From NCBI GenBank assembly GCA_000004985.1, contig GG738845.1: a stretch of 64,000 nucleotides of DNA, one strand, 5' to 3'. Shown here piece after piece: positions 3,001-64,000 of this stretch (the stretch's first letter is position 1; every line of letters starts with the position of its first letter). Both the position numbers and the translations under genes were made by a program. The stretch is from Naegleria gruberi. Its lineage: Eukaryota. The notes beneath the pieces were generated by a model. That model saw only the letters and a list, made by a program, of their open reading frames with translations. It was not told where the DNA came from and searched no databases.

Positions 3001-6000
3001 NNNNNNNNNNNNNNNNNNNNNNNNNNNNNNNNNNNNNNNNNNNNNNNNNNNNNNNNNNNNNNNNNNNNNNNNNNNNNNNNNNNNNNNNNNNNNNNNNNNN
3101 NNNNNNNNNNNNNNNNNNNNNNNNNNNNNNNNNNNNNNNNNNNNNNNNNNNNNNNNNNNNNNNNNNNNNNNNNNNNNNNNNNNNNNNNNNNNNNNNNNNN
3201 NNNNNNNNNNNNNNNNNNNNNNNNNNNNNNNNNNNNNNNNNNNNNNNNNNNNNNNNNNNNNNNNNNNNNNNNNNNNNNNNNNNNNNNNNNNNNNNNNNNN
3301 NNNNNNNNNNNNNNNNNNNNNNNNNNNNNNNNNNNNNNNNNNNNNNNNNNNNNNNNNNNNNNNNNNNNNNNNNNNNNNNNNNNNNNNNNNNNNNNNNNNN
3401 NNNNNNNNNNNNNNNNNNNNNNNNNNNNNNNNNNNNNNNNNNNNNNNNNNNNNNNNNNNNNNNNNNNNNNNNNNNNNNNNNNNNNNNNNNNNNNNNNNNN
3501 NNNNNNNNNNNNNNNNNNNNNNNNNNNNNNNNNNNNNNNNNNNNNNNNNNNNNNNNNNNNNNNNNNNNNNNNNNNNNNNNNNNNNNNNNNNNNNNNNNNN
3601 NNNNNNNNNNNNNNNNNNNNNNNNNNNNNNNNNNNNNNNNNNNNNNNNNNNNNNNNNNNNNNNNNNNNNNNNNNNNNNNNNNNNNNNNNNNNNNNNNNNN
3701 NNNNNNNNNNNNNNNNNNNNNNNNNNNNNNNNNNNNNNNNNNNNNNNNNNNNNNNNNNNNNNNNNNNNNNNNNNNNNNNNNNNNNNNNNNNNNNNNNNNN
3801 NNNNNNNNNNNNNNNNNNNNNNNNNNNNNNNNNNNNNNNNNNNNNNNNNNNNNNNNNNNNNNNNNNNNNNNNNNNNNNNNNNNNNNNNNNNNNNNNNNNN
3901 NNNNNNNNNNNNNNNNNNNNNNNNNNNNNNNNNNNNNNNNNNNNNNNNNNNNNNNNNNNNNNNNNNNNNNNNNNNNNNNNNNNNNNNNNNNNNNNNNNNN
4001 NNNNNNNNNNNNNNNNNNNNNNNNNNNNNNNNNNNNNNNNNNNNNNNNNNNNNNNNNNNNNNNNNNNNNNNNNNNNNNNNNNNNNNNNNNNNNNNNNNNN
4101 NNNNNNNNNNNNNNNNNNNNNNNNNNNNNNNNNNNNNNNNNNNNNNNNNNNNNNNNNNNNNNNNNNNNNNNNNNNNNNNNNNNNNNNNNNNNNNNNNNNN
4201 NNNNNNNNNNNNNNNNNNNNNNNNNNNNNNNNNNNNNNNNNNNNNNNNNNNNNNNNNNNNNNNNNNNNNNNNNNNNNNNNNNNNNNNNNNNNNNNNNNNN
4301 NNNNNNNNNNNNNNNNNNNNNNNNNNNNNNNNNNNNNNNNNNNNNNNNNNNNNNNNNNNNNNNNNNNNNNNNNNNNNNNNNNNNNNNNNNNNNNNNNNNN
4401 NNNNNNNNNNNNNNNNNNNNNNNNNNNNNNNNNNNNNNNNNNNNNNNNNNNNNNNNNNNNNNNNNNNNNNNNNNNNNNNNNNNNNNNNNNNNNNNNNNNN
4501 NNNNNNNNNNNNNNNNNNNNNNNNNNNNNNNNNNNNNNNNNNNNNNNNNNNNNNNNNNNNNNNNNNNNNNNNNNNNNNNNNNNNNNNNNNNNNNNNNNNN
4601 NNNNNNNNNNNNNNNNNNNNNNNNNNNNNNNNNNNNNNNNNNNNNNNNNNNNNNNNNNNNNNNNNNNNNNNNNNNNNNNNNNNNNNNNNNNNNNNNNNNN
4701 NNNNNNNNNNNNNNNNNNNNNNNNNNNNNNNNNNNNNNNNNNNNNNNNNNNNNNNNNNNNNNNNNNNNNNNNNNNNNNNNNNNNNNNNNNNNNNNNNNNN
4801 NNNNNNNNNNNNNNNNNNNNNNNNNNNNNNNNNNNNNNNNNNNNNNNNNNNNNNNNNNNNNNNNNNNNNNNNNNNNNNNNNNNNNNNNNNNNNNNNNNNN
4901 NNNNNNNNNNNNNNNNNNNNNNNNNNNNNNNNNNNNNNNNNNNNNNNNNNNNNNNNNNNNNNNNNNNNNNNNNNNNNNNNNNNNNNNNNNNNNNNNNNNN
5001 NNNNNNNNNNNNNNNNNNNNNNNNNNNNNNNNNNNNNNNNNNNNNNNNNNNNNNNNNNNNNNNNNNNNNNNNNNNNNNNNNNNNNNNNNNNNNNNNNNNN
5101 NNNNNNNNNNNNNNNNNNNNNNNNNNNNNNNNNNNNNNNNNNNNNNNNNNNNNNNNNNNNNNNNNNNNNNNNNNNNNNNNNNNNNNNNNNNNNNNNNNNN
5201 NNNNNNNNNNNNNNNNNNNNNNNNNNNNNNNNNNNNNNNNNNNNNNNNNNNNNNNNNNNNNNNNNNNNNNNNNNNNNNNNNNNNNNNNNNNNNNNNNNNN
5301 NNNNNNNNNNNNNNNNNNNNNNNNNNNNNNNNNNNNNNNNNNNNNNNNNNNNNNNNNNNNNNNNNNNNNNNNNNNNNNNNNNNNNNNNNNNNNNNNNNNN
5401 NNNNNNNNNNNNNNNNNNNNNNNNNNNNNNNNNNNNNNNNNNNNNNNNNNNNNNNNNNNNNNNNNNNNNNNNNNNNNNNNNNNNNNNNNNNNNNNNNNNN
5501 NNNNNNNNNNNNNNNNNNNNNNNNNNNNNNNNNNNNNNNNNNNNNNNNNNNNNNNNNNNNNNNNNNNNNNNNNNNNNNNNNNNNNNNNNNNNNNNNNNNN
5601 NNNNNNNNNNNNNNNNNNNNNNNNNNNNNNNNNNNNNNNNNNNNNNNNNNNNNNNNNNNNNNNNNNNNNNNNNNNNNNNNNNNNNNNNNNNNNNNNNNNN
5701 NNNNNNNNNNNNNNNNNNNNNNNNNNNNNNNNNNNNNNNNNNNNNNNNNNNNNNNNNNNNNNNNNNNNNNNNNNNNNNNNNNNNNNNNNNNNNNNNNNNN
5801 NNNNNNNNNNNNNNNNNNNNNNNNNNNNNNNNNNNNNNNNNNNNNNNNNNNNNNNNNNNNNNNNNNNNNNNNNNNNNNNNNNNNNNNNNNNNNNNNNNNN
5901 NNNNNNNNNNNNNNNNNNNNNNNNNNNNNNNNNNNNNNNNNNNNNNNNNNNNNNNNNNNNNNNNNNNNNNNNNNNNNNNNNNNNNNNNNNNNNNNNNNNN

Positions 6001-9000
6001 NNNNNNNNNNNNNNNNNNNNNNNNNNNNNNNNNNNNNNNNNNNNNNNNNNNNNNNNNNNNNNNNNNNNNNNNNNNNNNNNNNNNNNNNNNNNNNNNNNNN
6101 NNNNNNNNNNNNNNNNNNNNNNNNNNNNNNNNNNNNNNNNNNNNNNNNNNNNNNNNNNNNNNNNNNNNNNNNNNNNNNNNNNNNNNNNNNNNNNNNNNNN
6201 NNNNNNNNNNNNNNNNNNNNNNNNNNNNNNNNNNNNNNNNNNNNNNNNNNNNNNNNNNNNNNNNNNNNNNNNNNNNNNNNNNNNNNNNNNNNNNNNNNNN
6301 NNNNNNNNNNNNNNNNNNNNNNNNNNNNNNNNNNNNNNNNNNNNNNNNNNNNNNNNNNNNNNNNNNNNNNNNNNNNNNNNNNNNNNNNNNNNNNNNNNNN
6401 NNNNNNNNNNNNNNNNNNNNNNNNNNNNNNNNNNNNNNNNNNNNNNNNNNNNNNNNNNNNNNNNNNNNNNNNNNNNNNNNNNNNNNNNNNNNNNNNNNNN
6501 NNNNNNNNNNNNNNNNNNNNNNNNNNNNNNNNNNNNNNNNNNNNNNNNNNNNNNNNNNNNNNNNNNNNNNNNNNNNNNNNNNNNNNNNNNNNNNNNNNNN
6601 NNNNNNNNNNNNNNNNNNNNNNNNNNNNNNNNNNNNNNNNNNNNNNNNNNNNNNNNNNNNNNNNNNNNNNNNNNNNNNNNNNNNNNNNNNNNNNNNNNNN
6701 NNNNNNNNNNNNNNNNNNNNNNNNNNNNNNNNNNNNNNNNNNNNNNNNNNNNNNNNNNNNNNNNNNNNNNNNNNNNNNNNNNNNNNNNNNNNNNNNNNNN
6801 NNNNNNNNNNNNNNNNNNNNNNNNNNNNNNNNNNNNNNNNNNNNNNNNNNNNNNNNNNNNNNNNNNNNNNNNNNNNNNNNNNNNNNNNNNNNNNNNNNNN
6901 NNNNNNNNNNNNNNNNNNNNNNNNNNNNNNNNNNNNNNNNNNNNNNNNNNNNNNNNNNNNNNNNNNNNNNNNNNNNNNNNNNNNNNNNNNNNNNNNNNNN
7001 NNNNNNNNNNNNNNNNNNNNNNNNNNNNNNNNNNNNNNNNNNNNNNNNNNNNNNNNNNNNNNNNNNNNNNNNNNNNNNNNNNNNNNNNNNNNNNNNNNNN
7101 NNNNNNNNNNNNNNNNNNNNNNNNNNNNNNNNNNNNNNNNNNNNNNNNNNNNNNNNNNNNNNNNNNNNNNNNNNNNNNNNNNNNNNNNNNNNNNNNNNNN
7201 NNNNNNNNNNNNNNNNNNNNNNNNNNNNNNNNNNNNNNNNNNNNNNNNNNNNNNNNNNNNNNNNNNNNNNNNNNNNNNNNNNNNNNNNNNNNNNNNNNNN
7301 NNNNNNNNNNNNNNNNNNNNNNNNNNNNNNNNNNNNNNNNNNNNNNNNNNNNNNNNNNNNNNNNNNNNNNNNNNNNNNNNNNNNNNNNNNNNNNNNNNNN
7401 NNNNNNNNNNNNNNNNNNNNNNNNNNNNNNNNNNNNNNNNNNNNNNNNNNNNNNNNNNNNNNNNNNNNNNNNNNNNNNNNNNNNNNNNNNNNNNNNNNNN
7501 NNNNNNNNNNNNNNNNNNNNNNNNNNNNNNNNNNNNNNNNNNNNNNNNNNNNNNNNNNNNNNNNNNNNNNNNNNNNNNNNNNNNNNNNNNNNNNNNNNNN
7601 NNNNNNNNNNNNNNNNNNNNNNNNNNNNNNNNNNNNNNNNNNNNNNNNNNNNNNNNNNNNNNNNNNNNNNNNNNNNNNNNNNNNNNNNNNNNNNNNNNNN
7701 NNNNNNNNNNNNNNNNNNNNNNNNNNNNNNNNNNNNNNNNNNNNNNNNNNNNNNNNNNNNNNNNNNNNNNNNNNNNNNNNNNNNNNNNNNNNNNNNNNNN
7801 NNNNNNNNNNNNNNNNNNNNNNNNNNNNNNNNNNNNNNNNNNNNNNNNNNNNNNNNNNNNNNNNNNNNNNNNNNNNNNNNNNNNNNNNNNNNNNNNNNNN
7901 NNNNNNNNNNNNNNNNNNNNNNNNNNNNNNNNNNNNNNNNNNNNNNNNNNNNNNNNNNNNNNNNNNNNNNNNNNNNNNNNNNNNNNNNNNNNNNNNNNNN
8001 NNNNNNNNNNNNNNNNNNNNNNNNNNNNNNNNNNNNNNNNNNNNNNNNNNNNNNNNNNNNNNNNNNNNNNNNNNNNNNNNNNNNNNNNNNNNNNNNNNNN
8101 NNNNNNNNNNNNNNNNNNNNNNNNNNNNNNNNNNNNNNNNNNNNNNNNNNNNNNNNNNNNNNNNNNNNNNNNNNNNNNNNNNNNNNNNNNNNNNNNNNNN
8201 NNNNNNNNNNNNNNNNNNNNNNNNNNNNNNNNNNNNNNNNNNNNNNNNNNNNNNNNNNNNNNNNNNNNNNNNNNNNNNNNNNNNNNNNNNNNNNNNNNNN
8301 NNNNNNNNNNNNNNNNNNNNNNNNNNNNNNNNNNNNNNNNNNNNNNNNNNNNNNNNNNNNNNNNNNNNNNNNNNNNNNNNNNNNNNNNNNNNNNNNNNNN
8401 NNNNNNNNNNNNNNNNNNNNNNNNNNNNNNNNNNNNNNNNNNNNNNNNNNNNNNNNNNNNNNNNNNNNNNNNNNNNNNNNNNNNNNNNNNNNNNNNNNNN
8501 NNNNNNNNNNNNNNNNNNNNNNNNNNNNNNNNNNNNNNNNNNNNNNNNNNNNNNNNNNNNNNNNNNNNNNNNNNNNNNNNNNNNNNNNNNNNNNNNNNNN
8601 NNNNNNNNNNNNNNNNNNNNNNNNNNNNNNNNNNNNNNNNNNNNNNNNNNNNNNNNNNNNNNNNNNNNNNNNNNNNNNNNNNNNNNNNNNNNNNNNNNNN
8701 NNNNNNNNNNNNNNNNNNNNNNNNNNNNNNNNNNNNNNNNNNNNNNNNNNNNNNNNNNNNNNNNNNNNNNNNNNNNNNNNNNNNNNNNNNNNNNNNNNNN
8801 NNNNNNNNNNNNNNNNNNNNNNNNNNNNNNNNNNNNNNNNNNNNNNNNNNNNNNNNNNNNNNNNNNNNNNNNNNNNNNNNNNNNNNNNNNNNNNNNNNNN
8901 NNNNNNNNNNNNNNNNNNNNNNNNNNNNNNNNNNNNNNNNNNNNNNNNNNNNNNNNNNNNNNNNNNNNNNNNNNNNNNNNNNNNNNNNNNNNNNNNNNNN

Positions 9001-12000
9001 NNNNNNNNNNNNNNNNNNNNNNNNNNNNNNNNNNNNNNNNNNNNNNNNNNNNNNNNNNNNNNNNNNNNNNNNNNNNNNNNNNNNNNNNNNNNNNNNNNNN
9101 NNNNNNNNNNNNNNNNNNNNNNNNNNNNNNNNNNNNNNNNNNNNNNNNNNNNNNNNNNNNNNNNNNNNNNNNNNNNNNNNNNNNNNNNNNNNNNNNNNNN
9201 NNNNNNNNNNNNNNNNNNNNNNNNNNNNNNNNNNNNNNNNNNNNNNNNNNNNNNNNNNNNNNNNNNNNNNNNNNNNNNNNNNNNNNNNNNNNNNNNNNNN
9301 NNNNNNNNNNNNNNNNNNNNNNNNNNNNNNNNNNNNNNNNNNNNNNNNNNNNNNNNNNNNNNNNNNNNNNNNNNNNNNNNNNNNNNNNNNNNNNNNNNNN
9401 NNNNNNNNNNNNNNNNNNNNNNNNNNNNNNNNNNNNNNNNNNNNNNNNNNNNNNNNNNNNNNNNNNNNNNNNNNNNNNNNNNNNNNNNNNNNNNNNNNNN
9501 NNNNNNNNNNNNNNNNNNNNNNNNNNNNNNNNNNNNNNNNNNNNNNNNNNNNNNNNNNNNNNNNNNNNNNNNNNNNNNNNNNNNNNNNNNNNNNNNNNNN
9601 NNNNNNNNNNNNNNNNNNNNNNNNNNNNNNNNNNNNNNNNNNNNNNNNNNNNNNNNNNNNNNNNNNNNNNNNNNNNNNNNNNNNNNNNNNNNNNNNNNNN
9701 NNNNNNNNNNNNNNNNNNNNNNNNNNNNNNNNNNNNNNNNNNNNNNNNNNNNNNNNNNNNNNNNNNNNNNNNNNNNNNNNNNNNNNNNNNNNNNNNNNNN
9801 NNNNNNNNNNNNNNNNNNNNNNNNNNNNNNNNNNNNNNNNNNNNNNNNNNNNNNNNNNNNNNNNNNNNNNNNNNNNNNNNNNNNNNNNNNNNNNNNNNNN
9901 NNNNNNNNNNNNNNNNNNNNNNNNNNNNNNNNNNNNNNNNNNNNNNNNNNNNNNNNNNNNNNNNNNNNNNNNNNNNNNNNNNNNNNNNNNNNNNNNNNNN
10001 NNNNNNNNNNNNNNNNNNNNNNNNNNNNNNNNNNNNNNNNNNNNNNNNNNNNNNNNNNNNNNNNNNNNNNNNNNNNNNNNNNNNNNNNNNNNNNNNNNNN
10101 NNNNNNNNNNNNNNNNNNNNNNNNNNNNNNNNNNNNNNNNNNNNNNNNNNNNNNNNNNNNNNNNNNNNNNNNNNNNNNNNNNNNNNNNNNNNNNNNNNNN
10201 NNNNNNNNNNNNNNNNNNNNNNNNNNNNNNNNNNNNNNNNNNNNNNNNNNNNNNNNNNNNNNNNNNNNNNNNNNNNNNNNNNNNNNNNNNNNNNNNNNNN
10301 NNNNNNNNNNNNNNNNNNNNNNNNNNNNNNNNNNNNNNNNNNNNNNNNNNNNNNNNNNNNNNNNNNNNNNNNNNNNNNNNNNNNNNNNNNNNNNNNNNNN
10401 NNNNNNNNNNNNNNNNNNNNNNNNNNNNNNNNNNNNNNNNNNNNNNNNNNNNNNNNNNNNNNNNNNNNNNNNNNNNNNNNNNNNNNNNNNNNNNNNNNNN
10501 NNNNNNNNNNNNNNNNNNNNNNNNNNNNNNNNNNNNNNNNNNNNNNNNNNNNNNNNNNNNNNNNNNNNNNNNNNNNNNNNNNNNNNNNNNNNNNNNNNNN
10601 NNNNNNNNNNNNNNNNNNNNNNNNNNNNNNNNNNNNNNNNNNNNNNNNNNNNNNNNNNNNNNNNNNNNNNNNNNNNNNNNNNNNNNNNNNNNNNNNNNNN
10701 NNNNNNNNNNNNNNNNNNNNNNNNNNNNNNNNNNNNNNNNNNNNNNNNNNNNNNNNNNNNNNNNNNNNNNNNNNNNNNNNNNNNNNNNNNNNNNNNNNNN
10801 NNNNNNNNNNNNNNNNNNNNNNNNNNNNNNNNNNNNNNNNNNNNNNNNNNNNNNNNNNNNNNNNNNNNNNNNNNNNNNNNNNNNNNNNNNNNNNNNNNNN
10901 NNNNNNNNNNNNNNNNNNNNNNNNNNNNNNNNNNNNNNNNNNNNNNNNNNNNNNNNNNNNNNNNNNNNNNNNNNNNNNNNNNNNNNNNNNNNNNNNNNNN
11001 NNNNNNNNNNNNNNNNNNNNNNNNNNNNNNNNNNNNNNNNNNNNNNNNNNNNNNNNNNNNNNNNNNNNNNNNNNNNNNNNNNNNNNNNNNNNNNNNNNNN
11101 NNNNNNNNNNNNNNNNNNNNNNNNNNNNNNNNNNNNNNNNNNNNNNNNNNNNNNNNNNNNNNNNNNNNNNNNNNNNNNNNNNNNNNNNNNNNNNNNNNNN
11201 NNNNNNNNNNNNNNNNNNNNNNNNNNNNNNNNNNNNNNNNNNNNNNNNNNNNNNNNNNNNNNNNNNNNNNNNNNNNNNNNNNNNNNNNNNNNNNNNNNNN
11301 NNNNNNNNNNNNNNNNNNNNNNNNNNNNNNNNNNNNNNNNNNNNNNNNNNNNNNNNNNNNNNNNNNNNNNNNNNNNNNNNNNNNNNNNNNNNNNNNNNNN
11401 NNNNNNNNNNNNNNNNNNNNNNNNNNNNNNNNNNNNNNNNNNNNNNNNNNNNNNNNNNNNNNNNNNNNNNNNNNNNNNNNNNNNNNNNNNNNNNNNNNNN
11501 NNNNNNNNNNNNNNNNNNNNNNNNNNNNNNNNNNNNNNNNNNNNNNNNNNNNNNNNNNNNNNNNNNNNNNNNNNNNNNNNNNNNNNNNNNNNNNNNNNNN
11601 NNNNNNNNNNNNNNNNNNNNNNNNNNNNNNNNNNNNNNNNNNNNNNNNNNNNNNNNNNNNNNNNNNNNNNNNNNNNNNNNNNNNNNNNNNNNNNNNNNNN
11701 NNNNNNNNNNNNNNNNNNNNNNNNNNNNNNNNNNNNNNNNNNNNNNNNNNNNNNNNNNNNNNNNNNNNNNNNNNNNNNNNNNNNNNNNNNNNNNNNNNNN
11801 NNNNNNNNNNNNNNNNNNNNNNNNNNNNNNNNNNNNNNNNNNNNNNNNNNNNNNNNNNNNNNNNNNNNNNNNNNNNNNNNNNNNNNNNNNNNNNNNNNNN
11901 NNNNNNNNNNNNNNNNNNNNNNNNNNNNNNNNNNNNNNNNNNNNNNNNNNNNNNNNNNNNNNNNNNNNNNNNNNNNNNNNNNNNNNNNNNNNNNNNNNNN

Positions 12001-18000: not shown

Positions 18001-21000
18001 NNNNNNNNNNNNNNNNNNNNNNNNNNNNNNNNNNNNNNNNNNNNNNNNNNNNNNNNNNNNNNNNNNNNNNNNNNNNNNNNNNNNNNNNNNNNNNNNNNNN
18101 NNNNNNNNNNNNNNNNNNNNNNNNNNNNNNNNNNNNNNNNNNNNNNNNNNNNNNNNNNNNNNNNNNNNNNNNNNNNNNNNNNNNNNNNNNNNNNNNNNNN
18201 NNNNNNNNNNNNNNNNNNNNNNNNNNNNNNNNNNNNNNNNNNNNNNNNNNNNNNNNNNNNNNNNNNNNNNNNNNNNNNNNNNNNNNNNNNNNNNNNNNNN
18301 NNNNNNNNNNNNNNNNNNNNNNNNNNNNNNNNNNNNNNNNNNNNNNNNNNNNNNNNNNNNNNNNNNNNNNNNNNNNNNNNNNNNNNNNNNNNNNNNNNNN
18401 NNNNNNNNNNNNNNNNNNNNNNNNNNNNNNNNNNNNNNNNNNNNNNNNNNNNNNNNNNNNNNNNNNNNNNNNNNNNNNNNNNNNNNNNNNNNNNNNNNNN
18501 NNNNNNNNNNNNNNNNNNNNNNNNNNNNNNNNNNNNNNNNNNNNNNNNNNNNNNNNNNNNNNNNNNNNNNNNNNNNNNNNNNNNNNNNNNNNNNNNNNNN
18601 NNNNNNNNNNNNNNNNNNNNNNNNNNNNNNNNNNNNNNNNNNNNNNNNNNNNNNNNNNNNNNNNNNNNNNNNNNNNNNNNNNNNNNNNNNNNNNNNNNNN
18701 NNNNNNNNNNNNNNNNNNNNNNNNNNNNNNNNNNNNNNNNNNNNNNNNNNNNNNNNNNNNNNNNNNNNNNNNNNNNNNNNNNNNNNNNNNNNNNNNNNNN
18801 NNNNNNNNNNNNNNNNNNNNNNNNNNNNNNNNNNNNNNNNNNNNNNNNNNNNNNNNNNNNNNNNNNNNNNNNNNNNNNNNNNNNNNNNNNNNNNNNNNNN
18901 NNNNNNNNNNNNNNNNNNNNNNNNNNNNNNNNNNNNNNNNNNNNNNNNNNNNNNNNNNNNNNNNNNNNNNNNNNNNNNNNNNNNNNNNNNNNNNNNNNNN
19001 NNNNNNNNNNNNNNNNNNNNNNNNNNNNNNNNNNNNNNNNNNNNNNNNNNNNNNNNNNNNNNNNNNNNNNNNNNNNNNNNNNNNNNNNNNNNNNNNNNNN
19101 NNNNNNNNNNNNNNNNNNNNNNNNNNNNNNNNNNNNNNNNNNNNNNNNNNNNNNNNNNNNNNNNNNNNNNNNNNNNNNNNNNNNNNNNNNNNNNNNNNNN
19201 NNNNNNNNNNNNNNNNNNNNNNNNNNNNNNNNNNNNNNNNNNNNNNNNNNNNNNNNNNNNNNNNNNNNNNNNNNNNNNNNNNNNNNNNNNNNNNNNNNNN
19301 NNNNNNNNNNNNNNNNNNNNNNNNNNNNNNNNNNNNNNNNNNNNNNNNNNNNNNNNNNNNNNNNNNNNNNNNNNNNNNNNNNNNNNNNNNNNNNNNNNNN
19401 NNNNNNNNNNNNNNNNNNNNNNNNNNNNNNNNNNNNNNNNNNNNNNNNNNNNNNNNNNNNNNNNNNNNNNNNNNNNNNNNNNNNNNNNNNNNNNNNNNNN
19501 NNNNNNNNNNNNNNNNNNNNNNNNNNNNNNNNNNNNNNNNNNNNNNNNNNNNNNNNNNNNNNNNNNNNNNNNNNNNNNNNNNNNNNNNNNNNNNNNNNNN
19601 NNNNNNNNNNNNNNNNNNNNNNNNNNNNNNNNNNNNNNNNNNNNNNNNNNNNNNNNNNNNNNNNNNNNNNNNNNNNNNNNNNNNNNNNNNNNNNNNNNNN
19701 NNNNNNNNNNNNNNNNNNNNNNNNNNNNNNNNNNNNNNNNNNNNNNNNNNNNNNNNNNNNNNNNNNNNNNNNNNNNNNNNNNNNNNNNNNNNNNNNNNNN
19801 NNNNNNNNNNNNNNNNNNNNNNNNNNNNNNNNNNNNNNNNNNNNNNNNNNNNNNNNNNNNNNNNNNNNNNNNNNNNNNNNNNNNNNNNNNNNNNNNNNNN
19901 NNNNNNNNNNNNNNNNNNNNNNNNNNNNNNNNNNNNNNNNNNNNNNNNNNNNNNNNNNNNNNNNNNNNNNNNNNNNNNNNNNNNNNNNNNNNNNNNNNNN
20001 NNNNNNNNNNNNNNNNNNNNNNNNNNNNNNNNNNNNNNNNNNNNNNNNNNNNNNNNNNNNNNNNNNNNNNNNNNNNNNNNNNNNNNNNNNNNNNNNNNNN
20101 NNNNNNNNNNNNNNNNNNNNNNNNNNNNNNNNNNNNNNNNNNNNNNNNNNNNNNNNNNNNNNNNNNNNNNNNNNNNNNNNNNNNNNNNNNNNNNNNNNNN
20201 NNNNNNNNNNNNNNNNNNNNNNNNNNNNNNNNNNNNNNNNNNNNNNNNNNNNNNNNNNNNNNNNNNNNNNNNNNNNNNNNNNNNNNNNNNNNNNNNNNNN
20301 NNNNNNNNNNNNNNNNNNNNNNNNNNNNNNNNNNNNNNNNNNNNNNNNNNNNNNNNNNNNNNNNNNNNNNNNNNNNNNNNNNNNNNNNNNNNNNNNNNNN
20401 NNNNNNNNNNNNNNNNNNNNNNNNNNNNNNNNNNNNNNNNNNNNNNNNNNNNNNNNNNNNNNNNNNNNNNNNNNNNNNNNNNNNNNNNNNNNNNNNNNNN
20501 NNNNNNNNNNNNNNNNNNNNNNNNNNNNNNNNNNNNNNNNNNNNNNNNNNNNNNNNNNNNNNNNNNNNNNNNNNNNNNNNNNNNNNNNNNNNNNNNNNNN
20601 NNNNNNNNNNNNNNNNNNNNNNNNNNNNNNNNNNNNNNNNNNNNNNNNNNNNNNNNNNNNNNNNNNNNNNNNNNNNNNNNNNNNNNNNNNNNNNNNNNNN
20701 NNNNNNNNNNNNNNNNNNNNNNNNNNNNNNNNNNNNNNNNNNNNNNNNNNNNNNNNNNNNNNNNNNNNNNNNNNNNNNNNNNNNNNNNNNNNNNNNNNNN
20801 NNNNNNNNNNNNNNNNNNNNNNNNNNNNNNNNNNNNNNNNNNNNNNNNNNNNNNNNNNNNNNNNNNNNNNNNNNNNNNNNNNNNNNNNNNNNNNNNNNNN
20901 NNNNNNNNNNNNNNNNNNNNNNNNNNNNNNNNNNNNNNNNNNNNNNNNNNNNNNNNNNNNNNNNNNNNNNNNNNNNNNNNNNNNNNNNNNNNNNNNNNNN

Positions 21001-29022: not shown

Positions 29023-29063
29023 TTTATTGTTTTTGTCGCAAGTTATGTACAAAGGTTGTTGAT

Positions 29064-29450
29064 CTAGGGTCTGGTTTGTTTAGCTTGTGTTTGAACGTTA
29101 GGTTGTTGGTGATCGGCGATAGTTGCTAATTTAATTAGATTTTGTTGTAATTTCACTTGGAGTCTTTGTAAATCAATTCCATAATAAATTTTAGTATTGC
29201 CAGTCAAATATTGATAATAGTTAATATTTTGTGATGTAGATCAAACATACGGTTCACATTGATCGAATTGTCCTAGTTTTTGTCTTTCAATAATAGCAAA
29301 AATTAATTGTTGATTTTCGTCTAAATACTAATAAAGTTGTTGTTATTGTTGCGATATGAAACGTACATCCTGTATAGTTTTTGTGGTAATATTGCTGGCC
29401 GATGTATTCATATTGTCATTTGATGATGAAGCACGAGGTTGTGTGTTCAT
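29064..29450 (-). CDS. Small SS18/GIF-family protein (SNH domain), 86 aa, three exons: complement(join(29064..29163,29251..29327,29367..29450)); introns 39 nt (GTACGT..TAG) and 87 nt (GTATGT..AAG)
   Basis: Spliced translation MNTQPRASSSNDNMNTSASNITTKTIQD|YLDENQQLIFAIIERQKLGQFDQCEP|LQVKLQQNLIKLATIADHQQPNVQTQAKQTRP. This matches the SS18 N-terminal homology domain / plant GIF pattern (IQK-LDEN--LI--I---Q--GK--EC-----LQ-NL-YLA-IAD). A-rich leader before the ATG. Exon lengths sum to 261 nt, which is 87 codons. Missed by the ORF track because the exons are short. Confidence 0.6.
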
Positions 29451-29509
29451 TTTTTGTTCCGACAAAAATTATTTTGATTTAAAAAAATGATACACAACAA
29501 AGTAATAAT

Positions 29510-50752: not shown

Positions 50753-53079
50753 TTAAAAGTTTTCCAAATCCAATTCCTTAAGGGTATCCTTCTTATTGGA
50801 TGATGAAGCATTGCTTGATGATTTGGTCTTCTTCTTGGATGGTTCCGTTCGCTTAGAAGATGGGGCACTTGTGGATTCAGTTGACTCATCTCCTCTCTTT
50901 CTCTTAAGTTTAGTCTCTTCCATTTCTTTGAGAGCAGATTCTTCTTCATCCTCTTCTTCCTCGAAGGTAACCTTTTCGTCCAATTTGGCAGCAACTCTTT
51001 CCAAAACTTCTCTGTCTTGTTTCTTCTTTTCGTTTGCATAGTACTTGTCGAGAGGTGTTTCAGTATCCTTTAAGAATTCTATAACCTTGTCAAATTCAAG
51101 TGGAGTGAAATTAATCTTGGATTTGGATTCGTTTACAAAAATGATATTGTCATTCACATGCTTAACAAGATTAGTTATTTGCTTGGAGATACCAAAATGG
51201 AGTGTTTCAGTATGTGATTTAACATACTTCTTCAAAAAGTTTGTAATTGGATAGGAAAGTTCTGGGAAGGCAACAGACTTACTATGATTAGCCAAGTGAT
51301 CCAAAAGTAAGAAACAACAATCATCAATGATTCTTTGATGGAATTCTCTAGATTTGAGTTCCTCAGGTACAGCCTTGAGTTTGAATTCGAAATATAATGG
51401 TTGTGGTTTTTGATTTTGTTTTGGAGTGTTAATAGCTTGTTTCAATTGTAAAATTTCAAAAACTGTTTGCGAAATTGGAATAAAACTCTTGTCACAATCT
51501 CTCGAAAGTTGGTTGAGCATGGTCAAAATCTTAACTTTGAATGGATAATGTTTGGCAGAATTAGTTAAACCAATAGCAGCCATAGCAATTTGTGTGACTG
51601 GGTAGAGAAGTGCTGAAATATTTTCTTGCTTGTAATAGGCACATATAACCTTTGACCAGGCATCCAAACAGTGGAAGAATTTCCAATTATAACATAAAGC
51701 ATAACCATTTTGAACTGTTGAGTCCATAGCTCTTCTCACCGTTATAGCAAGTTCTCTAATGTATGTAAAGGCATGATGGTAAGTACTAGTAAAGTTGATT
51801 GTTGACAATTCTACAAGACAATTCTTCAAAAATTCAATTTGATGGAATGTAGATGGGTTATACCCTTTAGAATTTCTCAAAAGAGTATAGTAAATACCCT
51901 TAATACATAATTCTAGGAATGGATATGGATAAATAACAGCCATACTATTGATAATAATAAATGCTCTAACTCTAACATCTTCATTGGAATGACCTAACAA
52001 GTTGAGCATGAGTCTCAAAATTTTCTTTGGTTGAGCTTCAAATAAACCATAGAATGGAACGAGTCTTACGAAATAGTGCAAAACATAAATCAATAATTTT
52101 TCATCCAAAGTCTTTTCCATCATTTGGTGGAACGCATTAATAAATGTTGAGAGAGCTAATTTAATTTGTTTCCATCCAGAATGTTTAGCTGGTAATTTGT
52201 TTCTATTATTAATATAGTTAATGAAACTATTTCCTAAAAAAATTACTTACGATCCTTGTTCATATTTTGTCAAAATAGTTGCCAAATCTCCCAAACACTT
52301 AACACAAGCCATTGTAACTCTTGCAAATGTTGCAACATCAGGAACAACATATGGAATTTCTGGTTCTTTTTCCTTCTTTTTTGATTCTTGATTTTCTCCT
52401 TCCTTCTTCAAACCTGATCTGAAACATAAAATCAAGTGGAATAATGGTTGCACAGCGTTAGAAGTTTTAATCTTTTTAACCCAACGAGCAATCAATGCTT
52501 TTGTTACTTTAATTCTATTACCAAATTCTTTAGTATCCTTTTCATCTTCTTCTTGTATTTCACCTGCAATTCTTTCAAAGTATTGTTCATCTTCTTCGTC
52601 TACTTCTTGTTGATCAGTAACATCATCAGTCATTTCATCATCCTCTTCCTTATCACCTCCGTGGAAAACTTCCTCATCAGAATCATCAGAAACACTAGCA
52701 ATCAATTGTTGAATTTCTTCTTCTTCTTCCTTTGTTGTTTTTCCTCCTTCTTGTTTAAGTTTTTCAAGGAATTCCTCAACTTCATGTTTAGTTATACTAT
52801 TTAATGTTAAAATCATCATGATTGTTTCAGTTGTACATACCCATTATCATTTTTTGTTGATTCCTTCTTATCCTTCTTCTTAGATATCTTCAAATAATGT
52901 TGGTCAAGTTGTTGTTCTTCTTGTTCGGAATCGGAAAGGTCATCTCTTTTCAGCTTTTCATTTCTAATAGTTTCTCTAATATACTTTTGTTGACCAATCT
53001 TTTGAGTTCTTATCTTGGCTTTAACCAAACTTTTATTGGATTTGTATTTTTTATCACTCTTTGTTTGCTTTTTACCCAT
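50753..53079 (-). CDS. NOC2L: Nucleolar complex protein 2 (NOC2/NOC2L), about 752 aa: complement(join(50753..52226,52251..52796,52841..53079)); introns of 44 nt (GTATGT..AATAG) and a candidate 24-nt micro-intron (GTAAGT..AATAG)
   Basis: The N-terminus MGKKQTKSDKKYKSNKSL.. resembles yeast Noc2 (MGKVSKSTKKFQSKHL..). ..HEVEEFLEKLKQE.. matches DPEFYKFLQEND. HAFTYIRELAITVRRAM matches HAFLYIRQLAIHLRNAM. LCYNWKFFHCLDAW matches SVYNWQYVHCLFLW. The sequence upstream of the ORF-track start at 52123 is conserved NOC2 sequence in the same frame, interrupted by a single TAA. Confidence 0.75.
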
Positions 53080-53371
53080 TATTGTGAAGTACCGATTTTT
53101 TTTTGAAGTTTTTTATTTTCAATAAATTTTTGAATGGCAATAATTCTCATCACAACCTGCAGAATTTTGCTGCATTTATTTGTTTTTCATAATAATTTAA
53201 AACTGAAAGAAAACTGTTATCAGAGTGGCAGAAAGCTTGTAGTAACCACTATCACACAGGATAGATAATCACAAATTTCATTGACAAAAAATTAGGTACT
53301 ATGAAAAGTAACTTAAAGTTGTCAATAATATATTATACTTTTTATTAATTTTTTAAAAAAATACCTCAAAA

Positions 53372-53527
53372 ATGTCTGCTGAAGGTCATCACGGTCCATA
53401 CAATACTCGTTTGTTCTCTTGGAGAATGATTGCGATCGCCGCCGGTTTCTCCATGATTCCTTTGTTGTTCTCAAAGCCTGCTCCTCAACCAAAGACTGAA
53501 ACTTTCACTCCTCCAAGTAGGTATTAA
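53372..53527 (+). CDS. Small single-pass membrane protein, about 51 aa: MSAEGHHGPYNTRLFSWRMIAIAAGFSMIPLLFSKPAPQPKTETFTPPSRY. Possibly a COX7C/Cox8-family subunit. The 3' end is uncertain: a GTAGGT donor at 53517 could splice to 53562 or 53577
   Basis: A-rich leader (cctcaaaaATG). One predicted TM helix. G-Y-N--F..AAGF-MIP resembles the COX7C/yeast Cox8 pattern. Below the ORF-track size cutoff. Confidence 0.3.
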   Translation: MSAEGHHGPYNTRLFSWRMIAIAAGFSMIPLLFSKPAPQPKTETFTPPSRY

Positions 53528-53684
53528 TAATTTAAATTATTCTTGATTTTCTTTTATTCAGAACATTAAATTTCAGACACCATGGGACTTTAATAAAAAA
53601 ACTACTTTTAAATTCTAACAAAATTCATTATTTGAAAGTTTCATATTATTGCTTGCCGATGATTATTGCTACACCTTCAAAAAA

Positions 53685-59986: not shown

Positions 59987-62773
59987 ATGTCCCAAAGTGT
60001 TGATGATATCTTTGAAGAAATGATGAGAGAGGAGAAAGCCAAACTACTTCAGGCAAGCTCCTTTCAAAAACATAAAGAACAAGTTACAACGGAATACCTA
60101 GGAGCAAAAATTAACAAATCATCATCTAACACTTCAGCATCCGATACAAAAACGCCATACATTTCGTCGGAAATTGAAATTCTACTCCAACAAACACCAC
60201 AACAAATACTTCAAAATATACAAAGAGATGTAAATTGTTTAACCAGTACAGAAAAGGGAAAAAGAATTGGTGCGATGAAGAAATTAAAATCACTTTTTGA
60301 TGCTATGGAAAGCAGAAAAGATAGCCTTCCTATTGTTGATTATATGAAGTTTTTCTTTTCTCACATTTATCAACCACTCTTAAAACTATTTTCCAATGAA
60401 ACTGAATATTGCAGAGAAACTTCTGTAAAACTGATTGCAACCTTCATTAGCTATGCAAGCAGGAGTGAAATAGAAGAATCTCTTCCCTTCATGATACCAA
60501 TACTGGAAGAAAGAATGAAAGGTCCAAAGGAAAAATTTAATGAAGAAAGCGAGGAAGTTAGAGTATCACTTGTCAAATTGATGAAATTATTGATTGAAAA
60601 ATGCACTTCGATCTTTGAGGATGCAGATTACCTACAGGCAGCCATTCACTTTTTGGAAAAAGCTTTTGAAGATTTTCATGCTGTTAAAATTGAGGCTTGT
60701 GGTTGTGTTGTTTCTCTTTGTTTGTCTCTCAAGGAAACAACAATCAAGCTTTTTTCAGGATCACTGATAAAAAAACTTGTCCCTCACCTTAAACATCAAA
60801 GATTTAATGTACGGTCTGACGTTCTGGAAGCAATTAAGCATTTAGTCTCTTGCGGATCTGTAGAAGTGTTGGAAGAATTACACTCTCCTTTAAGAGAATT
60901 ATGTTTGGACAGATCTAGTGCTGTGAGGCAAAAGTTGTTGGATGTGGTTATTGACTGGACACTTAATTTAAGAGACAAATACTCATTTCAACACAACTTT
61001 GTCTATTATCTTGTCTTGCTTAGCTCTGATGAAATTGACACAATTTCCAAATCTGCATTTGACTATATTTTGGAAGCTGGGAGACAATTTGAAAATGATC
61101 ACGAAGATGAAGTCAACGAAACTAGAATGTATGATGAAGATGAGAATAATCAAATCAAATCTACTGTTTACGAAGATGTTGAAAGATTACCAAAATTACC
61201 GCCAGTAATTATTCAAAGACCTCTTCTTGGTTCTAGATTGCTTGTAGGAAAAAAACATTTGACAAAGGTGATTAATTATCTGATTACAGATTTTGAAGAT
61301 TGGAGTCTCCAAAGAAGAATTGAAGCAGCTAAAGCACTTCAATTGTGTGTGATATTTGCCGAAAGAAATCTGACACAACATTTGGACAAGTTAATGGTCA
61401 CATTATTCCAAGCCTGCAATGATGACGAAAAGGACTTAAGAGAAGAGTCACTAAGGGTTGTATCTCTGATAGGATACTTTTTAGAACCAGAAACATATTT
61501 AAATATTATTTATAACAATTCCAGACCAGAATATGCAGCATCCCCAAAATTTTTATCAACTGTTCTCAAATGCCTCTCCCTTTTGGTTTCTCACTCCCAT
61601 TCCATGTTAGTATCTAAAATTTTACCTACCTTATTGAACAAACTTGGATCACAACATTTGGTTTATAGCGAGGAGCCAAATGTCAAGTTAAATATTTTAC
61701 ACATATTGGATGCCTGTCTGTGTAACAAGTCAGTTACTACTCTAGAGATAGGGTTTGAAGTATTCATTTTGGTTTTAAAGGTTTGTTCCCAGCCAAATAC
61801 CCCTGAGGTAATTTCTAAATCGGGTCTTTCACTAATGGATCAAGAGGCAAAGTTATTCGGTTTGAATAATGTTGAGGAATTCTACAATATCTATTATGAA
61901 AAAGCTTTTACAATATTCACCTCTGATGTTGCCTCTTGGGATAAGTTATCACCAAATTTTTATTCTTTCGAAGCCCTTCTTAGAAATTCACCAAAGTCCA
62001 CCATTATCCACTTTTCAAAGATTTTTGAAGTATTGGGAATTCATCTTGCTACGGACAAAGATCCAATGATGATTCTCAGACTTCTCTCTGCTTTGAACTC
62101 GATTATTTATTCGAGTGGAAAAGAACTATCTCAAGAACACATTCATTATATATTAACACATTTTATTTACCCACACTCCAAATGGAGAAATGGAAGAGTA
62201 TACGTTGATGTTAGAAAAGCTGCAATTTCATGCTTTAGCTGTATAGTTCGACAACAATTATGTACTACAAAGGAAACTATCCAAACATTTTGCAGTGAAA
62301 GTCAATTCGATAATTTTATGTCGTGCATGGATGATGATTTCGATCCTCATTTGAGAGGTCTTGTAGTGAAGATAATGATTGATTTAATAGAGTATTCTCA
62401 TGATTTATTAACTGAAAAGCAATGGGATACCCTTTGTACAGAATTGAGAAATAGAATGGAGGATGAAAATGATGATGTGAGAGCAATTACATCTACTACT
62501 ATCGGTCAACTACTTCTTTATCTTCCAGCCCAAATGGTAGACCAATGTACTGCCCTCGTTTTTTGTTTGTCCACTCACATGGATGACCCTAATCCAGAGA
62601 TTAGAAAATCTTGTTTTAATACTTTTCAAACTGTGATATCTGATTTCAAAAATCATCAACACTTGGAATATGTAAAAGAGAGACTAGATACAATTAACCA
62701 TCAAATTAGAGGTTTTCTTCAATCATCAGTTAGGGCTAAGAATGATTCCTTACCTTACCAGAATTTAATTTGA
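59987..62773 (+). CDS. HEAT/ARM-repeat protein of about 928 aa (candidates: dynein-arm assembly HEAT protein DNAAF5-like or MMS19-like; unresolved)
   Basis: Long ORF with regularly spaced amphipathic helical repeats. The real start, aaaaaaaATGtcccaaagt at 59987, is in frame with the track ORF that starts on a TTG at 59876. TGA stop at 62771-62773. Confidence 0.6.
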   Translation: MSQSVDDIFEEMMREEKAKLLQASSFQKHKEQVTTEYLGAKINKSSSNTSASDTKTPYISSEIEILLQQTPQQILQNIQRDVNCLTSTEKGKRIGAMKKLKSLFDAMESRKDSLPIVDYMKFFFSHIYQPLLKLFSNETEYCRETSVKLIATFISYASRSEIEESLPFMIPILEERMKGPKEKFNEESEEVRVSLVKLMKLLIEKCTSIFEDADYLQAAIHFLEKAFEDFHAVKIEACGCVVSLCLSLKETTIKLFSGSLIKKLVPHLKHQRFNVRSDVLEAIKHLVSCGSVEVLEELHSPLRELCLDRSSAVRQKLLDVVIDWTLNLRDKYSFQHNFVYYLVLLSSDEIDTISKSAFDYILEAGRQFENDHEDEVNETRMYDEDENNQIKSTVYEDVERLPKLPPVIIQRPLLGSRLLVGKKHLTKVINYLITDFEDWSLQRRIEAAKALQLCVIFAERNLTQHLDKLMVTLFQACNDDEKDLREESLRVVSLIGYFLEPETYLNIIYNNSRPEYAASPKFLSTVLKCLSLLVSHSHSMLVSKILPTLLNKLGSQHLVYSEEPNVKLNILHILDACLCNKSVTTLEIGFEVFILVLKVCSQPNTPEVISKSGLSLMDQEAKLFGLNNVEEFYNIYYEKAFTIFTSDVASWDKLSPNFYSFEALLRNSPKSTIIHFSKIFEVLGIHLATDKDPMMILRLLSALNSIIYSSGKELSQEHIHYILTHFIYPHSKWRNGRVYVDVRKAAISCFSCIVRQQLCTTKETIQTFCSESQFDNFMSCMDDDFDPHLRGLVVKIMIDLIEYSHDLLTEKQWDTLCTELRNRMEDENDDVRAITSTTIGQLLLYLPAQMVDQCTALVFCLSTHMDDPNPEIRKSCFNTFQTVISDFKNHQHLEYVKERLDTINHQIRGFLQSSVRAKNDSLPYQNLI

Positions 62774-62777
62774 AATA

Positions 62778-63060
62778 AAAAGAATGTTTCTCCAGTTGAA
62801 TATTACGTGCTGCAAGCAACACCGAGAAGCGAGCATGAATCACAGAACATGAGGACAGAGGTCCTATCACACTCAGCGATCCTCTGGAACAACAAGGAGA
62901 ATATTGCTAAGGCTGATACCTAACAAAGGTGGAGTGTTTAAAGACGGTAATTGTTGAATTCTGTGCCATAAAGACACCATCAACTACTGTTAAACGCGTT
63001 GCTCCATTCAGCACTAGGAGTCGTTCTCAACATTATGCCAAACTCAAAAAATTTTAATTG
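62778..63060 (-). ncRNA. Candidate non-coding RNA locus (Pol III-like): a GC-richer ORF-free block ending (minus strand) in CTTTTTATTT. Its 3' portion carries a U6-like 5' stem-loop motif, GCTCGCTTCTCGG..CAGCAC
   Basis: A 550-nt spacer in a genome whose other spacers are 1-400 nt. Local GC is clearly above the flanks. Internal stem potential: CAGAGG..19 nt..CCTCTG and GGAC-CTCT-GTCC. The minus-strand T-run abuts the HEAT gene stop. ACAGAGA and AGC boxes were not found, so the identity is open. Confidence 0.2.
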
Positions 63061-63327
63061 TTATTTTTTAATTGGTTGTGGTTGAAGAAAATTACCGATA
63101 TTTGTTCGAGCATATTCCACATTTTAAATTAGTCTTGGGTGATGACCAATCATTGGGCATAATTAAGGAAAGGAAGATGTATTTATTTATCTCTTCCCTC
63201 ATTAACCGCCAAAAACATTATTTTGCAATCGTAAAAAATAGTGCTCACCTGGCAGCACGTCATCATCAAATATTATTTATTTATTGAGGAATTGGTTGGA
63301 GGATTTAGGCTTTGAAATATCTTCGGA

Positions 63328-64000
63328 ATGTCTCAAAGAAATCCAAAACTTGAAAGAAGTGATTCTAACCTCAGTACTACATCCACTCCTTCATCATTGG
63401 AGGATATTTACAAGGCAAAGAAGAATTTACCTTTCAAAACTATAAATTTAAGCGCTGTAAATAGAGTTGAACAAATATCGAGTAGAGGAGGTTTTGGACC
63501 AACACCAGAAATTGAGACTCCTGATTTTGCTGCCCTAAGAATTAAAACACCAACAGCACAACTGGGTAGACCTACTGAAAAAATTGATTTAAATTTCCCT
63601 AAATTAAGCTCGAGAAAAACACCACGATCTGCTAGGGAAGAAAGTTTCATATCACTAAATTCTAGTGAGATCAAAACATCAACACCCATAATTTCCCCAA
63701 AGAAAAATAGATCAGCAACAGCAATTGGACATTCGAATGAAAAAAAGGATTGGTTTTCTGAGGAAAAGAGAATAGACAATTCTCTGAGTGAATTAACAAA
63801 ATATGAGAATTATAAATTTCAACGATGGAATAGAAATCTTGAGGCTGTCCCAATTGAGCAACCTGCTGATAATGTATTAATGAGAATTGACAATGATGAA
63901 GAGATCACTCCTTTTCTTACAGAACTAACATCAAGAAACAGACAAATACAGAGGAGGACACCCCTTGGCAGGCATACTCCAACAGCAAACGAGGAAGACA
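63328..64000 (+). CDS. 5' part of a protein-coding gene running off the window end: MSQRNPKLERSDSNLSTTSTPSSLEDIYKAKKNLPFKTINLS.., S/T-P-rich, probably a phospho-regulated protein
   Basis: ATG at 63328, then about 224 codons without a stop to position 64000. The minus-strand ORFs 63408..63779 and 63671..63853 are its antisense shadows. Confidence 0.45.
   Translation, partial: MSQRNPKLERSDSNLSTTSTPSSLEDIYKAKKNLPFKTINLSAVNRVEQISSRGGFGPTPEIETPDFAALRIKTPTAQLGRPTEKIDLNFPKLSSRKTPRSAREESFISLNSSEIKTSTPIISPKKNRSATAIGHSNEKKDWFSEEKRIDNSLSELTKYENYKFQRWNRNLEAVPIEQPADNVLMRIDNDEEITPFLTELTSRNRQIQRRTPLGRHTPTANEED

Follow-up and report, generated by a model that had tools for sequence, protein, structure and literature searches.

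Genes that RNA polymerase III (Pol III) reads from type 3 promoters include those of animal U6, 7SK, RNase MRP and RNase P (H1), of plant U3 and telomerase RNA, and of ciliate telomerase RNA. We describe here a candidate RNA gene of similar organization, located on the minus strand of the spacer at 62774-63327 in a 64,000-nt stretch of the Naegleria gruberi genome (contig GG738845.1; the whole stretch is referred to below as the window) and shared with N. lovaniensis and N. fowleri. Like the type 3 genes it stands alone, has a TATA-like box ~25-30 nt upstream of its presumed start and a second element 3-9 nt further upstream, carries a T-run directly after the last conserved nucleotide, contains no internal run of five or more U residues and would yield a structured product of 260-320 nt. 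It differs from them in that the second element, AACCAYAAY, is not a known proximal or upstream sequence element, in that the RNA shares no hallmark with theirs and in that the polymerase is here putative.

A different likeness connects the candidate with snR30/U17 and with the H/ACA domain of vertebrate telomerase RNA, which display the same succession of domain, hinge and domain and an ACA after the basal stem near the 3' end. Unlike these RNAs, it has no conserved H box, canonical pocket, m1/m2 motifs or template, and its domains, besides being branched, have roughly double the normal length. Among the orphan structured RNAs that comparative genomics has brought to light, the conserved structural RNAs reported in fungi (PMC8216456) are likewise GC-richer intergenic blocks with compensatory changes and no assigned family; in Naegleria, however, the promoter-like pair of elements, the terminator and the two-domain architecture are conserved as well, and the host is a heterolobosean amoeba.

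In our view the interval 62777-63083 (minus strand) is a gene in its own right, whose product is a stable non-coding RNA (ncRNA) of elaborate structure and of no catalogued family, which probably serves as the scaffold of a ribonucleoprotein (RNP); we would assign this reading a probability of roughly 0.62. Comparison of the three species establishes that the element is conserved, non-coding and single-copy, and that its substitutions preserve an elaborate secondary structure of the minus strand.

Conservation of the spacer element

The spacer measures 554 nt from the stop codon of the DNAAF5 gene to the next ATG (63328) and contains neither an open reading frame (ORF) of more than 71 aa nor a tRNA. 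The initial annotation had described it as an ORF-free, GC-richer island of ~550 nt; this is accurate as to length and coding content, but the excess of GC is limited to ~62790-63015, and from 63020 to 63327 the spacer does not differ in composition from the background. The 200-nt segment at 62804 reaches a GC content of 0.435 against a mean of 0.333 (sd 0.036), placing it among the top 5 of 714 such segments. Only 28104-64000 of the window carries sequence; positions 1-28103 are a single run of N, either an assembly gap or masking. The further statement that every other spacer is 400 nt or shorter is contradicted by gaps of 487 nt (29023-29509) and 829 nt (52820-53648), counting ORFs of at least 100 aa. 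Only 62777-63083 is relevant to the RNA gene.

DNAAF5 loci were compared among N. lovaniensis (L001), N. fowleri (L002/L005, and L003/L006 from a second assembly) and a Naegleria-like metagenome contig (L004). In blastn searches the island matches N. lovaniensis with 81% identity over 90 nt (E 2e-17) and 85% over 47 nt, and N. fowleri with E 8e-10 and, in addition, an exact 19-mer. The homologous copies in both relatives are intergenic, ~5.5 kb downstream of DNAAF5, and lie between a Ras/Roc gene and a folate-receptor-like gene in inverted orientation relative to DNAAF5. The RNA would be ~260 nt long in N. gruberi and ~300-320 nt in N. lovaniensis and N. fowleri. Its 5' half is 82-92% identical between species, compared with 66-71% for the DNAAF5 coding sequence, so that the element is conserved more strongly than the coding sequence adjacent to it.

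Such conservation could in principle betray a missed exon, an outcome that the initial annotation had itself named as a reason to abandon the idea of an RNA gene. Across the element, however, no frame stays open in the three species alike. In N. gruberi, stretches free of stop codons extend to 32-46 aa at most, and aligning the sequences in pairs takes 44-57 gap positions. The lack of a shared frame and the number of gaps therefore argue that the element is not a missed exon, and covariation is present.

Secondary structure and strand

What do the substitutions preserve? The structure was modelled in a hand-curated structural alignment of the three species comprising 14 helices (P0, P1, P2a-e and P3-P9), all of which are kept in every species. 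Over its 91 column pairs, 96.7% of the cells are canonical, compared with 41-49% after a slide of the 3' partners by 1-3 columns; both members have changed in 29 pairs, against 3-5 in the slid alignments, and none of 1000 shuffles reaches the observed values. Because in an alignment by MAFFT the N. gruberi row is out of step by one column beyond column 253, in the 3' part, a separate count with the tool count_structure_pairs was limited to the helices that stay in register there (P0-P3, P7 and P8). These are paired in 98.0% of the cells, against 36-49% when slid, and include 10 double-changed pairs, with 1 of 500 shuffles scoring as high.

Compensatory change is clearest in P4, P5, P6, P9 and P1, the last with an A-U to G-C replacement. 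In P4, N. gruberi has UUCUCC/GGAGAA where N. lovaniensis and N. fowleri share UCUUGGU/ACCAAGA. P5, P6 and P9 differ in sequence in each of the species while their pairing is kept: P5 takes the forms AGAGG/CUUCU, GGAGGGA/UCUCUCU and GGAGAGU/ACUUUCC, and P6 the forms GAGUGUGA/UCAUGCUC, GCGGAUGG/CCUAUCGC and GCCGUGUGU/GCACAUGGC. P7 is a fixed GGAC-CUCU-GUCC, and P8 (UCAU...GUGA) shows a U-G to U-A change between species. Folding of single sequences to minimum free energy (MFE) recovers the full helix set from the N. fowleri RNA (z -5.1) and most helices from the N. lovaniensis RNA, where part of the 3' domain differs (z -2.9); in neither case is any of 200 shuffles as stable. Covariation thus shows an RNA of two domains joined by a short hinge, which is CAAAUCG in N. 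fowleri and is longer in N. lovaniensis, where it holds a small hairpin of its own. The coordinates of all parts are collected in the table.

Since both strands offer T-runs, the strand was tested explicitly. The minus strand is the more stable in all three species, with MFE values of -59.6, -100.9 and -106.5 kcal/mol against -52.9, -76.8 and -87.7 kcal/mol for the plus strand, an advantage of 7, 24 and 19 kcal/mol. Modelled helix by helix, the structure has 201 Watson-Crick pairs, 22 G-U pairs and 8 mismatches on the minus strand and 201, 3 and 27, respectively, on the plus strand; in the curated alignment the two strands have 23 and 3 G-U pairs and 96.7% and 88.6% paired cells. The loop of P9 on the minus strand is CUUG in N. 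gruberi, GAAA in N. lovaniensis and GCAA in N. fowleri. These GNRA and CUUG tetraloops exist on the minus strand only, and P9 of the plus strand would carry C.A mismatches. A plus-strand RNA was attractive for the run of 6-7 T, a rival terminator, that follows the conserved block in all three species, and was rejected on the G-U asymmetry, the MFE differences of 7-24 kcal/mol and the tetraloops; a conserved TATA-like box belonging to the minus-strand gene is the better reading of this run.

Parts of the candidate RNA gene in the N. gruberi window (positions of the window; paired segments joined by "with")
Feature	Position	Strand	Remarks
Upstream promoter-like element AACCACAAC	63075-63083	-	Consensus AACCAYAAY; putative promoter role
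TATA-like box TTAAAAAATAA	63061-63071	-	44-49 nt upstream of helix P1
Predicted transcript, ~260 nt	62777-63040	-	Block conserved in blastn; strand from MFE and G-U asymmetry
5' domain	62907-63017	-	P0, P1, arm P2a-P2e and P3
Helix P0 (tentative)	63014-63017 with 62907-62910	-	
Helix P1	63008-63012 with 62912-62916	-	
Arm P2a-P2e	62931-63005	-	Long and irregular, with invariant internal loops
Hairpin P3	62918-62930	-	Short
Hinge CAAUA	62902-62906	-	Single-stranded, between the domains
3' domain	62788-62901	-	P4 closes a junction with the P5-P6 arm and hairpin P9
Closing helix P4	62896-62901 with 62788-62793	-	
Invariant 19-mer AGGACCUCUGUCCUCAUGU	62847-62865	-	Identical in all three species; twin hairpins P7-P8 at the tip of the P5-P6 arm
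Hairpin P9, GGUGUUG-CUUG-CAGCACG	62806-62823	-	The "U6-like" stem-loop of the initial annotation
3' end, conserved ACAUU(C) and T5	62777-62787	-	ACAUUC 62782-62787; T5 62777-62781

Flanking signals and identity of the RNA

Both ends of the structured region are accompanied by conserved signals. The composite AACCAYAAY-N3-9-WAAAAAAT is found only upstream of the RNA in each of the loci (the window, L001, L005 and L006). Its first part reads AACCATAAT in N. lovaniensis and N. fowleri, and the TATA-like box stands at an equal distance in these relatives as CATAAAAAATA and CATAAAAAAATA, respectively. From the spacing of this box, the 5' end of the transcript would lie near 63040, downstream of a T6 run at 63046-63051. 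At the other end, the conserved ACAUU(C) begins 0-1 nt after P4; ACA is followed by UUC or UUU and then by the T-run, and the transcript is predicted to end within the T5 run. The run follows ACAUU immediately in N. gruberi and N. lovaniensis and 12 nt later in N. fowleri, and U runs inside any of the three RNAs do not exceed 4. The minus strand ends in ...ACATTCTTTTTATTT (62790-62776), and a mere 4 nt separate the T5 run from the DNAAF5 stop codon, the two genes being convergent. The terminator-like run CTTTTTATTT pointed out by the initial annotation is indeed where the conserved RNA gene ends.

The TATA-like box, the proximal element and the T-run are thus kept in position, but such sequences are common in AT-rich DNA. 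Of Pol III genes to compare them with, only tRNAs were found. The promoter-like and terminator-like motifs fit Pol III, without proving it. The initial proposal of an ORF-free, structured small-RNA gene on the minus strand is supported, and this gene has promoter-like signals of its own; its assignment to Pol III is compatible with the data. We also observe that a short tandem CAACCA-CAACCA-A (63072-63084, minus strand) includes the upstream element of N. gruberi and superficially resembles a telomerase template; this (CAACCA)2 repeat, situated upstream of the TATA-like box, is conserved in neither N. lovaniensis nor N. fowleri.

How might such a gene and its product work? Transcription would start ~25 nt downstream of the TATA-like box, paired with the AACCAYAAY element, and stop at the T5 run, most likely by the action of Pol III. 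The near-invariant 5' domain would present a long arm with fixed internal loops and a small hairpin, and the 3' domain, closed by P4, would have most of its helices free to change in sequence as long as pairing is kept. The invariant loops of P2 and the twin hairpin P7-P8 are likely binding sites for proteins or for a partner RNA, the 19-mer being a candidate recognition site, and the covarying helices may act as scaffolding. The ACA directly after P4 and the oligo-U tail likely define and protect the 3' end. It is this combination of invariant loops and twin hairpin with covarying helices that makes the RNA most likely the scaffold of an RNP conserved across the genus Naegleria. A bolder form of the proposal would make it the first member of a new class of RNP-scaffold RNAs confined to Naegleria or Heterolobosea, of Pol III type and two-domain build, in which the P2 loops and P7-P8 recruit a partner not used in this way elsewhere; we put this forward tentatively, with the odds somewhat against it.

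Several alternatives have to be weighed against the proposed lineage-specific scaffold, and most of them turn on membership in a known family. At gathering thresholds, Rfam finds nothing in a search of the whole window. In E-value mode, the interval 62600-63450 yields chance-level matches only: snoCD11 (E 5.7), TP73-AS1 (E 3.7) and ACEA_U3 (E 6.3). The snoCD11 match (63121-63170, minus strand) scores 16.5 bits, again at chance level; the ACEA_U3 match (63218-63379, minus strand, 13.3 bits) contains a UGAUGAUGA box together with a GAAUCACUUCU resembling box A, and part of it runs antisense to the beginning of the downstream ORF. Infernal in lax mode, applied to the exact RNAs of N. fowleri and N. 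gruberi and to wider stretches of the three species, reports no relevant family. Motifs were sought by regular-expression scans of the three species' RNAs. The literature was searched for Naegleria ncRNA, telomerase RNA, RNase P and the RNA sequences themselves, with nothing specific found, and no catalogue of Naegleria ncRNAs turned up.

The most serious rival is a very divergent orthologue of a universal RNP RNA (RNase MRP or P, telomerase, SRP or U3) that Rfam misses. Heterolobosea are poorly represented in Rfam, and an RNA of 260-320 nt, single-copy, with possible Pol III-type signals, genus-level conservation and no Rfam match has the usual profile of a protist telomerase or MRP RNA. The diagnostic parts of these molecules are nevertheless missing from the three RNAs. 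For RNase P and MRP, there is no match to CR-I (GNAANNUCNGNG or GAAAGUCC-like) or to CR-V (ACNNRANNNRGNNUA), which form the P4 pseudoknot, and neither RNaseP_nuc nor RNase_MRP gives a match at E<=10; the 5'-3' end pairing typical of P/MRP (P1/P2) is also lacking, as the consensus and single-sequence folds form two separate domains and the leader pairs with the hinge. In the case of telomerase, TTTGGG is a candidate telomere repeat of N. gruberi (PMC3622300), and no stretch of (CCCAAA)n of at least 7 nt occurs on either strand in the three species; this candidate status of the repeat itself qualifies our rejection of a telomerase RNA. There is no conserved unpaired stretch of at least 8 nt usable as a template either, a telomerase template being complementary to ~1.5 telomere repeats, while on the other side of the balance the literature searched describes no telomerase RNA for Naegleria. 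SRP RNA would have Alu-domain motifs and a helix 8 with a GNAR tetraloop and AGCA-type loops; the helix-8 motif AGCAG is absent from the three RNAs, with no Rfam SRP match, and the GNRA hairpin P9 is a near-perfect helix and carries CUUG as its loop in N. gruberi. A C/D RNA would have a C box (RUGAUGA) near the 5' end, a D box (CUGA) near the 3' end and a terminal stem joining them. The C box and the U3 box A core are absent, as are C/D boxes generally, and under lax Infernal filters none of these families is matched at E<=10 by the exact RNAs of two species. Nor do the scans reveal, in any of the three RNAs, an Sm site, the 5' end of U1, the branch-point sequence of U2, the loop of U5 or snR30 m1/m2. 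RNase P/MRP, SRP, U1, U2, U3, U5, the Sm class, C/D RNAs and snR30 were rejected on these negative scans together with Rfam, and with them go the 7SL, MRP and snoRNA identities suggested by the initial annotation. We regard a divergent universal RNA as unlikely.

Rather less probable, in our judgement, is a non-canonical H/ACA RNA (snR30/U17-like or scaRNA-like) that would bind dyskerin (Cbf5), Nop10, Gar1 and Nhp2 and act in rRNA processing or modification. The two hairpin domains, each with a basal stem, the short A-rich hinge between them and the conserved ACA, which N. gruberi and N. lovaniensis have ~3 nt ahead of the T-run, all recall this class. Against it, the H box ANANNA is absent from the hinges of N. 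gruberi and N. fowleri and occurs only within the insertion specific to N. lovaniensis; the domains are branched and reach 110-160 nt; and the nearest upper stem, P9, has its base 18, 25 and 22 nt from ACA in N. gruberi, N. lovaniensis and N. fowleri, compared with the 14-16 nt of a pseudouridylation pocket. Rfam has no H/ACA match, and snR30 m1 and m2 are missing.

A precursor of small RNAs, in which the P2 arm with its 23-nt 5' strand and tip of variable length would be diced as a primary microRNA (pri-miRNA) or siRNA hairpin, is very improbable. Near-invariant arms with a variable tip are the conservation pattern of miRNA hairpins, and both P2 strands are indeed almost invariant, with a terminal extension varying from 5 to 13 bp; but the internal loops of P2 are strongly asymmetric (0/3, 2/4 and 2/5 nt), the multi-helix structure P4-P9 with its compensatory changes would be needless for a Dicer substrate, and the TATA and T-run architecture is unfitting. 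Slightly less credible still is the absence of any RNA gene, the element being a missed exon, a regulatory element at the DNA level or part of a neighbour's 3' untranslated region (UTR). The island does abut the DNAAF5 stop codon in N. gruberi, a species that has introns. To the lack of a shared frame must be added that the neighbouring genes differ between species, that the element is inverted relative to DNAAF5, and that a DNA element would not show compensatory, strand-asymmetric substitutions (23 G-U pairs against 3).

Finally, a divergent U6 snRNA or U6-like RNA, as proposed by the initial annotation, is almost certainly wrong: the strings it quoted, GCTCGCTTCTCGG (62834-62822) and CAGCAC (62812-62807), are present, and the U6/U2-like GCUCGCUUCUCGG...GCAGCAC followed by an AU-rich stretch and a T-run does resemble the U6 5' stem-loop, but this look-alike of GUGCUCGCUUCGGCAGCAC is found in N. 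gruberi only, near the 3' rather than the 5' end, where the other two species have unrelated pairing sequences; the ACAGAGA box and the AGC-triad context (AUUAGCA) have no match in the three RNAs, the Rfam U6 model finds nothing at its gathering score or at E<=10 although U6 is among the most conserved RNAs, and the candidate is 2.5-3 times longer. What survives of the supposed U6 stem-loop (GUGUUG-CUUG-CAGCAC) is the hairpin itself, conserved as P9.

A number of observations weigh against the stand-alone scaffold gene that we favour. Its transcription as a discrete RNA of ~260-320 nt, the polymerase and both ends are predicted from sequence signals, and the scaffold role is read solely from the pattern of conservation. 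Only three species were compared, two of them close (84% identical), so that there are effectively ~2 independent comparisons. The alignment was fitted by hand to the structure, and column homology in P0, P3, P6 and P9 was a choice, which inflates the count of 29 double changes; the most conserved helices, P2a-d and P7, never vary and so carry no information on pairing either way. Taken singly, the N. gruberi sequence is no more stable than its shuffles (z -0.6 to -1.3), contrary to the stable stems that the initial annotation saw in it; the structural signal thus comes from the comparison across species. Runs of T5 and A-rich boxes are commonplace at a genome GC of 33%, and both the N. lovaniensis and the N. 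fowleri RNA contain an internal U4. Outside the genus, blastn finds no homologue in two Willaertia magna loci (L013 and L014) that carry the Folate_rec and GFAT orthologues, where synteny with Naegleria is not kept. In the JGI metagenomes the invariant 19-mer has 0 matches, and a two-block pattern retrieves 6 loci, all of them chance matches in GC-rich, probably bacterial, contigs.

The covariance-model search had been proposed by the initial annotation as the check on its idea, with the lack of an Rfam match counted against it; the search was run and gave no relevant match, and by that rule alone the idea would have been dropped. To drop it would have been a mistake, since what conservation and covariation reveal is an RNA and not a missed exon. 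The lack of an Rfam match is therefore a poor ground for dismissing candidates in poorly sampled eukaryotic lineages. N. fowleri is the agent of a nearly always fatal brain infection, and if the bolder form of the proposal is true, a new class of RNA is present in this pathogen and absent from its human host. An RNA that is single-copy, more conserved than the neighbouring proteins, elaborately folded and assignable to no family likely serves an important cellular machine. Were it identified as the RNA still missing for a universal enzyme, the extent to which such an RNA can diverge would become apparent; should it be lineage-specific, it would represent a new RNP and a parasite-specific molecule, possibly of use as a diagnostic marker or drug target.

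Gene neighbourhood and other sequences

The gene that converges on the candidate in N. gruberi (59987-62773, plus strand) is a 928-aa ORF encoding a HEAT/TPR protein of the DNAAF5 type (Pfam TPR_DNAAF5, 1.4e-60), which matches a predicted protein of N. gruberi with 100% identity. In the three Naegleria species, less than 6 kb separates DNAAF5 from the RNA gene, and all their other neighbours differ. In N. gruberi the two are directly convergent and separated by 4 nt, and in N. lovaniensis and N. fowleri DUF1304, GFAT and Ras/Roc intervene. The N. gruberi window and a 23-kb N. fowleri locus share no genes besides DNAAF5, and neither N. lovaniensis nor N. fowleri has, close to the RNA, a counterpart of the gene found downstream in N. 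gruberi. The annotation of N. lovaniensis joins the Ras/Roc GTPase and GFAT (GATase+SIS) into one 925-aa model (L001 9711-13863); the two are separate in N. fowleri (L005 14169-18327), and the fusion is probably an annotation merge. The metagenome contig L004 (ENA contig k141_253165, 9.6 kb), whose Naegleria-like DNAAF5 is 65% identical to that of N. gruberi, holds no copy of the RNA, and the genes surrounding its DNAAF5 are different again.

The rest of the spacer (63090-63327) was checked as a possible second RNA and displays no conservation in N. lovaniensis or N. fowleri. The C-box-like UGAUGA motifs of the initial annotation (63139-63146 and 63258-63266) belong to this part, outside the conserved gene, and so does its inverted pair, given as 63129/63259 and truly situated at 63139-63146 and 63259-63266; neither is conserved. 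These last segments are the closing arms, GTGATGAC (63139-63146) and GTCATCAT (63259-63266), of an AT-rich panhandle at 63138-63267 with inner hairpins such as GGAAGAG/CTCTTCC. The panhandle sits between the putative promoter of the RNA gene and the next ATG and is not conserved in the two relatives. For either strand its stability exceeds that of shuffles (z -2.6 and -2.7), as would that of a DNA-level inverted repeat.

Two further stretches deserve mention. The folate-receptor locus of Willaertia magna (L013) includes a 5-kb AT-rich stretch without genes (4970-10001) and two tRNA genes of 57.3 bits each in Rfam (9614-9696, plus strand, and 18984-19066, minus strand), inverted with respect to each other and 9 kb apart. 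In the N. gruberi window, the longest gap without an ORF of at least 100 aa (52820-53648) contains a GC-richer patch at ~53350-53500 (GC 0.41-0.46); it holds a 56-codon open frame with MSAEGHHGPYNTRLF and might represent a small gene, an exon or a further non-coding element.

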